IMG/VR virus record: IMGVR_UViG_2671180673_000002
Reading direction: 5' to 3' (one strand)
Origin: a virus
Lineage: Duplodnaviria > Heunggongvirae > Uroviricota > Caudoviricetes
DNA length: 19,302 nucleotides
Part shown: positions 9,001-15,000 of the stretch, piece after piece
Numbering within the stretch: position 1 is the stretch's first letter
Layout of the letters: the number at the start of each line of letters is the position of its first letter
Made by a program: the position numbers

Positions 9001-12000
9001 CTCATTGGGCGTGAGAAGCGTATTTTTCACCGCATCCCCCAGCGTTTTCATGCGCCGCTCACTGTCCATTCTCAGCAGCGTGGTGACATCAAATTCTGTA
9101 CTCTCGTTTTCCCCCGTTTCCAGCGCCTCATCCAGTAACAGTTCAATGGACTCAATCAGCGTCTGCAGGCACTGGGAATAATACTGCTGCTCCAGCGCCT
9201 CCACGTTGTCACTGGAAGGCGGTTGTCCCACGCCAATCTTGTAGGCCGGGACACGGAACACCGAACAGACAATTTCAGCGGTCATCTTCAGTTGTTCCAC
9301 CGTCTGCGCATCCACAGGTGAAAACGTCGTGGGGTTGTATTTTGCCCCGTTGCTCAGAATGGCCGTTTTCCCCGCATTTTCGCCTGTATACCCGCTGTCC
9401 CAGTTGCTCTTCAGTTTTTTCGCATTTTCTTCCGTAATACTGCCGGGGATCTCAATCACCCCGGACGGCCTGCCGCCATTTCTGAAAAAAGACGTCGAAT
9501 TTTCCTGAATATGATGCCCCTGCGTGGCCGCCAGCCCGGCGGCATACACCGGCGGCAATCCTATAAGCGGATGAAAAAAACAGTTAAACCGGTCGTGGAT
9601 CACTTCCCGGGCAGGCACCGTCACCGCCTCCGTGATCCCGCAGTTCCGGTCCGGCGTGATGCGGTAGAACACCTCGCCGTCATCCGCCACCAGAGGTTCA
9701 ACCCGGCTCCAGTCCAGAATACGCAGTTCTTTGATCTGCCCCCGGGCATTACGGATTTTCAGCACCACCGTATTGCCATGACGCAGTTTGGCGTTCAGCC
9801 ACAGTTCAAAAAACTGGATGCGGTTCTGCTGGGCGTTGGGACGACGACAGAGGCGGGCAATATCCCCCCGGCGCGTTTCCCTGCGTATCCCATGCGCATC
9901 CGTCTGCATAAGACGCAGCCGCATTTTGGCGATATCCTGGGATATCAGCGAAATACATGCAAACACCGCATGAAAGGAGAGGACGGCTTCAGGATCGGCT
10001 TTCACGCCCTGCTGCCAGGCGCCGGAAAAGGGCTCAGCCACCGCCTGAAACAGGCTGGTCCAGCCCGCCTCTCTTACGTCACGTCCTGATTTCTGGTTTT
10101 TTCGGGTTCGCCGTAAAAGGTTCCACATTCGCCATGCTCCGCATCACGTTTCTTTTTCTGACCTGCCGGACGTCGCACCGTGATGTACTCCGCCTTTCCC
10201 AGGCGAACCAGCACCTCCGCACACGGCTGTGCCACATCACGGATATCCCCGGCCCGGGCATCATGCGTGCCCTGCAGATATCGGATCTTTGCCATAACCT
10301 GTTACGGGAGGCGCACGCCTCCCGTCCTCCTTATCAGACTCAGCCGCCGGACGCACTGCCGTAGTTCACTCCGGTGATCACCGCCACCGCCGCAGTACGG
10401 CGACGACGCCAGTTGATCCAGCGCTCCGCACGGATGGCCACGCTGCCTGTCTGGAACATGGAAACCAGCTCCACCGGGGACGGCGTGGTACTGTCGCCGG
10501 TCGGCTCAGACTGCATTTCCAGTGATGCCTCGCGGGACATATCCACTGCCACGCCGCCGTCATCAGCCAGATAAATATCCGGGGCATTCACCAGCACCAG
10601 CTGGTCACCCACGTACTGGGAGACAATCACCGGCAGCCCCTGGAAGGAGCCACCCAGCAGGGTCATGTCCGGGTATTCCTTCTGACCCAGCGCATTTTTA
10701 CGCATGGACAGTGCCAGGGCATTGGTGCTGGACATCAGCCAGACCGCACCGGTGGGCTGCAGGTTTGCTGCCACAAACTGTCCAAACGCAGCCTCTGCAT
10801 CCGCATCCGGGTTACCGGTTGATGCCGTGCCCTTCACATCATGGGTGATGGACGCCGGGGAGACATCTGCCACTGCGGCTTTTTTCGGGTCCACAAAGTC
10901 TGTATCCAGACGCGCCACCACCGCTTCCGCCAGCGCATTACGGACCAGTGCATCAGCAGCCGGACTGGAAAAACGGATCAATTCTTCCGTCAGTACCGCA
11001 ATGGCCGACACCTTCGCATGACTGAAGGTGATGGATTCAAAATCAAACTTCGTCAGGGGTTTTGCCTTACCCTCACCCACCCAGCCGGCAGCACCGCCGG
11101 ACACCTGGGCGTGCACACGGATATTGAATGGCACCTGACGAAGTGCAGGGATCCCGCCCTGACCAAATCGCCCGATAATGGTCTGCGGACGCAGGTAATC
11201 AATAAAGTCCTGTGCGTATTCCTGATATTCAGACAGGCTGCCTGCCCACTGCGGATCCGTGGTGGTCCCCGCGCCCACTGCCGATTTCAGGACATGATGC
11301 AGACGACTGTCATCCGGATACTGACGACGGGCCACTTCCAGGGCTTCAGATCGGACGCCTTTAGCCGCAGCCAGCGATTTGGCAAAGCGGGCGAAGCCAA
11401 TCCCCTTATCCAGTTTCTGCTCCACACGGATCACCGGCGCAGAAGCCACCGCGGCCACATTCCCGTTACCGGCCTGTTTCACCGGCTGCGCCGTGGCGGC
11501 CTTACCGGCTTCCAGTTCACGCAGGCGCTTCAGGTGCGCATCCACCTGACGGATTTCCGCTGCGGTGTTGTCGTAATGCTCTTCCTCCTCCACATCCAGC
11601 GTGCGCCCTTCCTCTGCGGCTTTGGTCATGACCTCCTCAAGGGAGGCTGCCAGCGCTGCACGCTTGTTTTCAAAACTTTTAATCTGTTCGCCAATATTCA
11701 TTATGGTCTTTTCCTTATGAAAAACGGTTGTTGACTGTGCCGCAGCGCCGGCAGAAGATGCGATTTTCACCACCGGTTTCCGGTTGCCGGACGCGGCAGA
11801 AAACGGGCGGTCGTAAGATTTAATGGTCCGGATGGTGCATTCCGCATTCGCGGGCACGGTGACGGCAGACACCTCCATCAGTTCCCAGCGCAGAAAATGC
11901 AGTCCGCCTCCGTCCAGAAAGGTGTATTCATGGGGACGGAAGCCCACGGACAGCCCCCTGACCAGCCCGGTCTTAATGGCCGCCCAGACCTCATCCAGCC

Positions 12001-15000
12001 GGGCAGCCAGTTGCGACGGCATATCCGGTACGGGCTTCACCAGTGTTGCCGTGATTTCCAGCCCTTCGCTGACCCGGCGCACCGTACACTGCCCCACCGG
12101 GCGGGAATGGTCATGCTGCCAGAGAAACGGGATCGCACTGCCAAACTCCGCGCCCTCCGGCTCCAGGATGTCACCATCCCGATCCGGAGAAGGCGTTGAC
12201 GCAATCCCGGTGATCACCCGTTCATCCTCACTGAAGGATTTCACCGTCAGCAGGGAACAGGCCCGTTTAAGAGTCACATCAGCCTCCTGAAAATAAAAAA
12301 ACCGCCGGAGCGGTTCGTGATGGTTACAGTGTGAACAGGGTTATATGAAAAAAACCGCATATTCTTTCTTTTTCGGTTCCGGGTTAAGGGACATCAGGGA
12401 GACCGCATTGAACAGCGCCATCAGCGGGTCAATTTTTCCCCGTCCACTGGCCTGTTTGGTGATAAGAATGGCGTTACCTTTAGGCTCCACCCGGGCATTG
12501 CCGACACACCAGGCCATCAGGGGCTGGTCACCATGCACCAGCACCCCTTCAGCCAGTTTGCGCTCGGTGGTTTTAATGGCCCCGCCCAGTTTCCAGCCCT
12601 GGCTTATCCCCACCACAATTCCGTCGGGGATCCCGGCTTCCGCCAGTGAATCCAGAATCTGCCCCACCCCTGACGGGTCAATACCGATATGGTCCAGTAA
12701 CTCAGCCTCATGAATGCGACGCACATATTCCGCCACTTCCGCCGTGTCATCCCCGACACGCCGGACAATGGTCATATCTCCACAGGCAACAAGATCCTGA
12801 AACCGGGACGCCTCGCTCTTCCGTCGGACCACCGCGGTTTCATGCGCCCAGGCATGGCCCCAGCCCAGCCATTCGCGGGTCTCCCGGTCACGCCCAATCA
12901 CATACATCCCCAGCAGATCATCCAGCCCTCCGCCGTCAATCCCCACCGTCACCACATCAGCACGACGCAGGATATCGTCCAGGCTGATACAACGGCCCTG
13001 CTCTTCCCAGAAATCAGCCCCCGCCCAGCGGTCAGAGCGCAGGGCAAGACCAATTTCCACATTGGCGTGTTTTGACATGAACCCCCGGAATGTCTCTTCA
13101 CCGGCTTCCCGGGCTTTACGGTACTCCCGGTACAGAAAGGCCTCATCCACTGAATAGCCGAGATTCGGATTGACCATGGCGAGGTTTTCCATCAGCAGGT
13201 TAGCCCCGCTTTCCACCATTTCAGGAGGGTGTTCAAATATCACCGGCAGAAAGTGCGGATCATGAATTTTGCCGTCGCGCACATCCCGGGCGTACTGCAG
13301 TTTCTGTCTGAACACCCCGGCGGGCGGTTCATTCGACTGGGTGGTCGTATACACCACAAACCCTTCCGGGCGGGAGGCAAGGCCGCCTATGGCTTCACGT
13401 AACATGTCCTCCGCCTTGCACTGCTTGCCAAACAGCCACAACTCATCAATCAGCGTACCCACGGACTTGATACCGGACACCGTATTCGGATCGGCTGCCA
13501 CCACCTTCAGGGTGGTGTCCGTCACTCGGTGGGTGATGGTCCGGATATGGGTCTGTACCTGGCAGAGGTCATCCAGATCATCGTCACGTCGTACCATATC
13601 CCGGGCAGGGTTGAAGGCGTTGGCCGCCACCTCCACAGTCGGGGCCAGAATCGTGTAACCCGCCGCCTGCCGCCAGTTCAGTAACAGTGCAGTCATCATG
13701 ATCCCCGCGGCCAGCGTGGACTTCGAGTTTTTCTTGGGGATAAGGATAAAAACTTCCTTGATATGGCGTACACCGGTCTGCGCATCGTAGGAGCCAAACA
13801 GGGCCGCCACCAGGTCAAACACCCACGGTGCACAGGACTCCCCGAACGTAGGGCTACCAGGTGCATCCACAATCCGCAGTTGTTTAAAAATCGCCAGGGC
13901 ATGTGCGGCCTCGTCCGGATAAATCGGATCCGGAATAATCGACAGCCCCTTTTTCAGGCGCTCTGCCCAGTCCGGGCAGGCTGTGCTCCATACAGGTATC
14001 ATCCGTTGCCCTCATTATCGTTATTCACCACCAGTCGGGGGGGCGGTGGCACCGCAAAACGGTTAGCCGCTTTTTTCGCGGCATCACCTTTTGCCGATTT
14101 TTTCCCGGTATCCCCTTTTTTATGGTGCGTGAACTGCGCCAGACGCCAGGCCGCATCCAGTGCCAGTTTCGGATCAATGCAGAGGTTTTCCACCAGGATC
14201 CGCCCCATGGCTTTCACCGGATCGGGAAGACCATCCTCCATATATTCAATACCAGGAGACATCACCGCGGACGGTGGCATCTCCAGATTGTTTTCGTCCG
14301 GCTGTGGTATTGCAGCCGCCTCACGGCGACGGGGTTTATCCTCCTGCTCTGATTTTTTCTGCCGGTAAACAGGAACCTCATCCACCTCCACCGTCTCGCA
14401 TTGTTTACGGGCTATAAACGCAAGCACCTCAGGATCTTTTGCCAGCTGCGAGCCTTTAACCCTGGCGGTCTTCGCCGAATAACCGGCGGCAATGGCTGAC
14501 GCTGTTTTGTTTTTCCCGGACATGAGCGCCAGCGCAAATTTTCGTTTTTGCGTTGTCAGCACAGCCTCCTCCCGGGTCCAGAACGCACTCAGCCGGGTAT
14601 GGTTCAGCCCATTTTTCCCGGCGTCTCATGCCGCAAATGTTAACTGCTGCCTGGTTAACATTTGCTGAAAAAGCCTGTTAACATTTTTTCCGCACAACAA
14701 ACTGAATAATAAAGATAAAAACCGCAAAAATGCCCGGGCAGCCAGTTAACATGTTAACTGCCCTGAAACGGGAATTTTTTCTCTGCGTGAGAGGGGGCGC
14801 GGTGTCCAAAGCGATCGTTTTTTACGCCGGATGATACCCCCCCGGGGTCGGGTTACAGTCCGATGATGTCGTCCTCTCTGCCACTACCTCCGGACACCTC
14901 CGGCAGCGTCGGGTCCGGCATATCACTCGCCGCTTCACGAGCAGACTTTTGTCGATGGCATTCGGTACAGAGCGTCCAGAGATTCGTCTCCTCATTACCA

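Follow-up and report, generated by a model that had tools for sequence, protein, structure and literature searches.

A candidate internal start codon within the fused protease–capsid gene of Shiga toxin-converting phages

The 19,302-nucleotide (nt) virus record IMGVR_UViG_2671180673_000002 (IMG/VR; Caudoviricetes), which in its full length is the window analyzed here, encodes on its minus strand a prohead protease and a major capsid protein within a single open reading frame (ORF). This gene is annotated as 'major head protein/prohead protease' in Shiga toxin (Stx) phages (97–99.9% identical in 2851, BP-4795, YYZ-2008, 1717, WGPS6, and phi330). Of 5426 complete E. coli genomes, 1255 contain it, in as many as seven copies each, and it is always annotated there as one protein. 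From a comparison of the gene with its fused and unfused relatives, we argue that an in-frame ATG at codon 193 (M193) probably acts as a second translation start, giving rise to a scaffold–capsid protein next to the full-length protease–capsid fusion.

Layout of the fused gene

The gene and its parts, read in the direction of translation, are the following (aa, amino acids; pLDDT, predicted local distance difference test):

12283..12288, minus strand: Shine-Dalgarno (SD) motif AGGAGG of the first start, with a 5-nt spacer
12275..12277, minus strand: first start codon, GTG (ATG in relatives from other genera)
10340..12277, minus strand: full-length ORF, composed of protease, linker, delta-like scaffold segment, and HK97-type major capsid protein; 645 aa, 69.0 kDa, stop codon TGA at 10340..10342
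11798..12277, minus strand: HK97-family (Peptidase S78) prohead protease domain, ~aa 1–160, delimited by Pfam, TIGR01543, invariant alignment columns, and AlphaFold
11702..11797, minus strand: hypervariable, indel-rich linker predicted to be disordered, ~aa 161–192 (alignment; pLDDT <35 for aa 141–193)
11712..11717, minus strand: internal SD motif TAAGGA, followed by the 10-nt spacer aaagaccata
11699..11701, minus strand: candidate internal in-frame start codon ATG (M193), from sequence and alignment
10340..11701, minus strand: nested ORF of delta-like segment plus capsid protein; 453 aa, 48.2 kDa, sharing frame and stop with the full-length ORF
11492..11701, minus strand: delta-domain-like helical hairpin, aa 193–262 (helices 195–222 and 229–261; AlphaFold pLDDT ~75)
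10373..11122, minus strand: HK97-fold capsid core, Pfam Phage_capsid, aa 386–635, from profile matches

The full-length ORF runs through its 645 codons without interruption, and its reading in the initial annotation as protease, scaffold-like segment, and capsid protein, in this order, was borne out by Pfam matches and by the domain boundaries of an AlphaFold model. In the N-terminal part, the Pfam profile Peptidase_S78 (PF04586) matched aa 48–152 with 34.7 bits (cutoff, 21), and TIGR01543 matched aa 48–154 with 49.5 bits, under its equivalog cutoff of 59; judged by these profiles, the protease part belongs to the Peptidase_S78 family without being a close equivalog. Two residues, H55 (in FLWQHD) and S110 (in GLSxGF), showed no variation in an alignment of 19 homologues and may be the catalytic histidine and serine known from HK97 gp4. 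In the C-terminal part, Phage_capsid (PF05065) covered aa 386–635 (53.1 bits; cutoff, 24.2), and the capsid protein 9d9w of the PDB was matched with an E-value of 7e-6. The TIGR01554 model (major_cap_HK97) scored 79.7 bits (cutoff, 27.5) and spanned residues 12–392 of the nested product, its position 3 pairing with residue 12 of the M193-initiated protein.

The AlphaFold model was built from the 19-sequence alignment and, with a mean pLDDT of 43, was used for the boundaries of protease, linker, and helices only. It comprises a beta-rich protease (aa 8–140; pLDDT 60–80), a disordered stretch (aa 141–193), and a helical hairpin (aa 195–261), within which aa 201–257 weakly matched residues 7–63 of 9gyi_B, a solved major head protein. 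In this predicted structure, M193 would be located exactly at the beginning of the delta-like scaffold segment. The initial annotation had placed the codon just past the protease with AAGGA 10 nt upstream, and both features are indeed present (ATG, 11701..11699; TAAGGA, 11717..11712).

Within the E. coli/Stx-phage lineage, the gene opens with GTG, which might reduce the amount of full-length fusion made there; all other fused relatives examined have ATG as the first start codon. The GGAG(G) core of the SD motif of this first start is kept in the enterobacterial loci.

Conservation of the M193 site in fused and unfused relatives

Ten in-frame ATGs lie within the 645-codon ORF. When 22 fused genes were aligned, only four columns always held a start codon (M1, M193, M515, and M607), and pairing with the SD sequence was, after M1, most uniform at M193: the weakest case still reached −4.3 kcal/mol, versus −1.5 at M515 and 0 at M607. 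Strong SD energies as such are not confined to M193, since conserved Gly and Glu codons create stronger SD-like strings before aa 46, 128, 405, and 580. A further candidate, M217 (11627..11638, minus strand; 24 codons downstream of M193), has GAGGAGG just 2 nt before its ATG; we rejected it, as the motif sits too close to the ATG and is not conserved.

M193 was unchanged in 19 homologues of 73–78% identity, and the 20–30 residues preceding it are hypervariable and rich in indels. Down to ~32% identity, all fused relatives carried a start codon (ATG, GTG, or TTG) at this site, and every fused DNA examined (37 loci) had an AAGG, AGGA, GGAG, or GAGG core 5–11 nt upstream; the chance of finding a 4-mer SD core in the −16..−5 window in these genes is 0.10. 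All enterobacterial fused loci, together with a pseudogenised copy in Arsenophonus, have AAGGA, AAAGGA, AAGGG, CAGGA, or AGAGG 6–11 nt upstream, the motif being retained in the enterobacterial loci despite differing linker residues. The same arrangement recurs in distant relatives, as AAGGAGG-8 nt-GTG in Reyranella (46% identical), AAGGA-7 nt-ATG in Candidimonas (37%), AAAAGGA-6 nt-ATG in a metagenome-assembled genome of the Burkholderiaceae (34%), and, in a cultured phage, as CAGGAGG-8 nt-ATG at M197 of Pseudomonas phage PAJU2 gp03. Some E. coli variants of 580–605 aa turned out to be decayed prophage copies with internal deletions and were uninformative.

A survey of the wider family comprised 107 fused cluster representatives, 39–58% identical to aa 193–645. 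Methionine was found within −5..+2 of the anchor position in 95 of them (background, 17%) and a few residues further downstream in another three. At the DNA level, the last nine had valine in eight cases, always encoded by GTG, and leucine (TTG) in one; each of these nine had an SD core (GGAG, AAGGA, GGAGG, or AGGAGG) 5–9 nt upstream. Among the 107 representatives and Reyranella, ATG is thus replaced only by GTG or TTG, the alternative start codons of bacteria; threonine, lysine, arginine, or isoleucine never occurred at the site, though each is one substitution away from ATG. The distance from the methionine to the conserved AEQI motif varies (MNIAEQI, MKTIAEQI).

Where protease and capsid protein are encoded separately, the homologue of M193 is the first residue of the capsid protein. 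This was checked at the DNA level in five unfused lineages, whose protease–capsid junctions read as follows:

Snodgrassella alvi (loci L025 and L028): protease stop codon, 23-nt spacer, AGAGG, ATG opening MTIEEQI
Acidovorax (locus L024): TAA..AAAGGA..GTG opening MNLQEQI, with the two genes in different frames
Moraxella phage Mcat5: stop and start codons overlap
Stenotrophomonas phage SOVA965: 122-nt spacer
Metagenomic locus L042: ATGA overlap

The unfused relatives retain a long C-terminal tail on the protease (234 aa in all in Snodgrassella), and the counterpart of the fused linker is this tail plus the intergenic ribosome-binding region. When aa 193–645 were searched against 1.84 billion cluster representatives, 5696 matches were obtained; in the best 150 of these, inspected for the start of the alignment, query residue 1 paired with residue 1–5 of ~450-aa proteins and with residue ~180–220 of ~650-aa proteins. 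These comparisons show that the ATG/SD pair at M193 is the homologue of the true start in stand-alone capsid genes. What had been a hint from a single sequence, namely that ATG and SD form a working start, thereby gained support from this homology and from the retention of both elements through the turnover of the linker.

Fused and unfused states are interleaved among the relatives. A neighbour-joining tree suggested at least 32 changes between them, a figure we rejected because two of three 'unfused' representatives checked at the DNA level proved to be fusions truncated at the end of a contig. In two metagenomic contigs cut inside the protease part (L043 and L044, for representatives P0221 and P0131), gene callers had taken the internal start as the start of the gene. 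Such contig-cut fusions are counted in databases as 'stand-alone' capsid proteins, and apparent fusion and fission counts are therefore inflated.

Codon choice and messenger RNA (mRNA) structure around M193 were also assessed. For the glycine of the linker 'KG', no codons other than GGA and GGG occur, with GGA accounting for 10.7% of glycine codons across the gene. Synonymous resampling of the seven upstream codons gave a median p of 0.14 at the M193 site versus 0.42–0.68 at control sites, which we regard as a modest signal of synonymous codon choice. Among ~626 windows of 60 nt, the one with the internal start at its centre ranked between 1 and 12 from the least structured in 20 of 22 homologues, and in these 20 it was less structured than the first initiation site. 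The region around the internal start is GC-poor, with 42–60% A.

Predicted products and rival explanations

We propose, with a probability of roughly 0.78, that this one frame yields two products, a 69-kDa protease–capsid fusion and a 48-kDa scaffold–capsid protein, which co-assemble. Ribosomes starting at GTG 12277 would produce the fusion of protease, linker, delta segment, and capsid protein, and those starting at ATG 11701, guided by the TAAGGA within the linker codons, would produce the delta–capsid protein that equals its C-terminal 453 residues; both initiation sites would reside on one late mRNA and in one frame. Sharing the delta segment and the capsid fold, the two proteins would enter the same procapsid, with the fusion subunits carrying a covalently tethered S78 protease into the interior of the shell—a tether taking the place of the C-terminal targeting tail of free HK97-type proteases. 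Once the shell is assembled, the protease would cleave off the delta segment, the linker, and its own domain, so that ~360 residues remain as the mature capsid protein; how much protease each shell receives would depend on how strongly the two sites on the mRNA initiate relative to each other. We infer each of these steps, that is, the making of both products, their ratio, their co-assembly, and the cleavage events, from the comparisons above. These comparisons also indicate that the start site at M193 is ancient and that selection almost certainly maintains it for initiation.

Several points weigh against the proposal. The case for two products is built on sequence comparison. The first start has the stronger SD motif (AGGAGG; GGAGG in relatives), so a rare full-length product, as originally envisaged, is not evident from the sequence. 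By our own volume estimate, there could be room for 415 protease domains inside a T=7 shell, in which case an internal start would not be physically required. A valine that derives from methionine by one substitution is necessarily encoded by GTG, so that the all-GTG result is weaker than the codon-usage probability implies (GTG makes up 34% of valine codons) and the information lies in the restricted spectrum of replacements. Finally, the low structure and A-richness of the site are mostly due to the amino-acid composition of the hydrophilic linker; the third-position GC content of the 12 codons after M193 is unbiased (median p, 0.45), and the compositional signal can thus be claimed neither as independent evidence nor as selection at the synonymous level. 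Nor does the sequence fix the ratio of the products: the SD motif is stronger at the first site, but in E. coli this site has a GTG and more structure, and the internal site has an ATG and is more open.

The main rival to the two-product model is that M193 and its SD motif are an evolutionary relic of the capsid start that preceded the fusion, with only the full-length protein being translated and the protease of each subunit removing itself after assembly. The homology of the site to the ancestral start fits this explanation, as do the negative third-position GC test and the estimated capacity of the shell, and given the interleaving of fused and unfused states, some of the fusions could be recent. 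The fused state extends, however, across Enterobacterales, Alpha-, and Betaproteobacteria at 32–78% identity, over which the linker has been wholly rewritten and start codon and SD motif have been kept in every case; the restriction to GTG and TTG as substitutes and the keeping of rare GGA or GGG glycine codons likewise speak against a relic, which we therefore consider unlikely. Considerably less probable still is that the SD-like tract is a by-product of a flexible linker rich in Lys, Glu, and Gly, or a pause element aiding the folding of the protease, and that the methionine has a structural role at the start of the delta helix. The A-rich composition does follow amino-acid content, and other SD-like strings in the gene (before aa 46 and aa 580) do stem from conserved Gly and Glu codons. 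Yet this explanation accounts neither for a residue encoded only by ATG, GTG, or TTG nor for its coincidence with residue 1 of stand-alone capsid proteins, and the variable distance to AEQI argues against a fixed structural role.

Conserved SD and ATG would also be compatible with a separate, shorter transcript from a promoter inside the protease-coding region, for which herpesvirus UL26.5 provides a precedent. No sigma-70-like promoter was found on either strand of 10200..12500, and hence none inside the protease-coding part, which favours internal initiation of translation over a separate transcript; moreover, the gene lies downstream of the terminase genes in a lambdoid late operon, and such operons are read as one antiterminated transcript. 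We regard a promoter of this kind as very improbable. The possibility that protease and capsid genes are truly separate—as they are in some related phages—and that a frameshift or stop between them was lost to a sequencing or assembly error is practically negligible, with no sign of such an error having been found: the 645-aa frame recurs in 92 phage records as well as in 1252 of the 5426 complete E. coli genomes, and homologues of 644–648 aa exist across many genera, which refutes an artefact.

Extending the two-product model, we lean towards the view that the entire family of S78-protease/HK97-capsid fusions (in Proteobacteria, among them the long-tailed Stx phages carried by roughly one in four complete E. 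coli genomes) consists of nested gene pairs, in which the capsid gene retains an initiation site of its own and the protease frame upstream continues into it, in which a fixed minority of capsid subunits is tethered to the protease, replacing peptide-mediated targeting, and in which fused and unfused forms interconvert easily. If the genes are nested in this way, switching—for instance from an ATGA overlap—would be easy because fusion leaves capsid expression unchanged, and the alternation of fused and split genes among close relatives would be accounted for.

In thousands of prophages, annotation treats a protease–capsid fusion as a single protein, and such fusions have repeatedly been called "unusual". 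To our knowledge, nobody has explained how the protease is dosed in a shell of ~415 subunits when it is encoded in a fused gene. A conserved nested start that generalises across the large fused family would, if true, be a simple and testable answer; it would also suggest a covalent route for protease packaging, mean that annotation pipelines miss a major virion precursor, and provide a natural template for packing cargo into HK97-type shells in adjustable proportions. Stx-converting phages are medically relevant, inducible, and growable, as exemplified by phi330, for which virion mass spectrometry has been reported (PMC12502783).

Related systems and neighbouring genes

In principle, a nested start would not surprise a specialist in phage assembly. 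In lambda C/Nu3 and Mu I/Z, a frame with an N-terminal protease contains an internal in-frame start with its own SD motif for the C-terminal assembly protein, resulting in few protease-bearing and many assembly molecules that co-assemble via their common C-terminus (bioRxiv 10.64898/2026.09.13.751334). The fused gene resembles these pairs in its long frame, its N-terminal protease, and its internal start with a ribosome-binding site of its own. The analogy to lambda C/Nu3 drawn in the initial annotation therefore stands with respect to the nested logic and fails in two other respects. The protease of lambda, gpC, is ClpP/SppA-like (S49) and not S78; and Nu3 is a free scaffold, with the capsid protein E encoded by a separate gene, whereas the nested frame here spans the whole capsid protein up to the common stop and thus does not specify a scaffold distinct from the capsid. 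The gene would function like the nested protease/scaffold schemes but is a distinct arrangement, with an S78 protease, a nested product that contains the capsid protein, and no free scaffold.

Similar logic is found outside of tailed phages with bacterial hosts. In herpes simplex virus (HSV) UL26/UL26.5 and in gp17/gp17.5 of the archaeal virus HFTV1, a protease–scaffold frame is accompanied by an N-terminally truncated in-frame product, which is abundant in those systems. For HFTV1, the internal start was demonstrated by ribosome profiling of initiation sites, and the C-terminal part was 7.8-fold more abundant (bioRxiv 10.64898/2026.09.13.751334). Both differ from the fused gene in that their proteases belong to other families and their capsid proteins are encoded separately; in addition, UL26.5 has its own promoter and transcript.

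In its components, the gene is closest to HK97 gp4/gp5, which likewise pair an S78 protease with an HK97 capsid protein, there bearing an N-terminal delta segment and here a delta-like one, and the maturation chemistry is presumably alike. In HK97, these are two separate genes, and the protease is reportedly packaged through binding of its C-terminal tail to the delta domain (Duda et al. 2013), whereas the tether is covalent in the fusion. Pseudomonas phage PAJU2 gp03, a 'prohead protease fused capsid protein', is part of the same fused family, with a capsid part 49% identical to that in the window. The records of PAJU2 and of the Stx phages 2851, BP-4795, YYZ-2008, and phi330 annotate one product only and never a nested start.

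Further fusions are known. Actinobacteriophages of clusters AM, AU, AN, EE, and EL have protease–(scaffold)–capsid in a single gene, the capsid being HK97-like, which has been termed unusual, in papers that do not discuss an internal start (PMC5513430, PMC7302621). These proteins have little or no sequence similarity to the Stx-phage fusion and are probably independent in origin. The NCBIfam model NF045541 ('prohead protease/major capsid protein fusion protein') scored 46 bits on our protein (cutoff, 525), with the match confined to the protease part; it represents a different, already curated fusion family, protease–capsid fusions thus being known as a class. Nothing in the accessible literature was found to describe an internal start for a protease–capsid fusion, while an earlier mention in subscription papers is possible. 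A preprint on CBASS concerns a protease–scaffold fusion and was set aside as not relevant.

The gene lies in a minus-strand late operon of lambdoid type, which also holds a 73-aa ORF, connector and tail-completion genes, and genes for the major tail protein and the tape-measure protein. Features around the fusion gene include:

13999..14562, minus strand: small terminase (terS)
12341..14002, minus strand: large terminase (terL)
12299..12316, minus strand: terminator-like hairpin GAACCGCTCCGGCGGTTT and then T-rich sequence, with the T-run reaching ~12291, between the large-terminase stop codon and the SD motif of the fusion gene
7543..10128, minus strand: portal ORF, 861 aa

The order of genes over 7543..14562 is terS, terL, protease–capsid, small ORF, and portal; it is shared by PAJU2, Mcat5, SOVA965, and several metagenomic loci, whereas the usual order puts the portal ahead of the protease and capsid genes. 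The succession of a T-run and GGAGG upstream of the fusion gene is kept in all enterobacterial relatives.

The Phage_portal profile matches aa 54–382 only of the portal ORF; its C-terminal ~470 aa matched no Pfam family above cutoff and contain internal repeats at the DNA level. BP-4795 annotates this region as two ORFs, the difference residing at a G-run (in the window, TTCAGGGGGGATAC; one G fewer in BP-4795) that may represent a site of frameshifting, a phase-variable tract, or an error in sequencing.

Even longer versions of the fused protein may exist. Two cluster representatives of ~1090 aa (P0123 and P0126) have ~620 residues ahead of the capsid part; they are either miscalled genes or larger fusions, in which terminase or portal is perhaps joined to the protease and capsid parts. 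In a 1079-aa protein from E. coli (P0001), TerL, S78, and capsid Pfam domains are combined in one chain.

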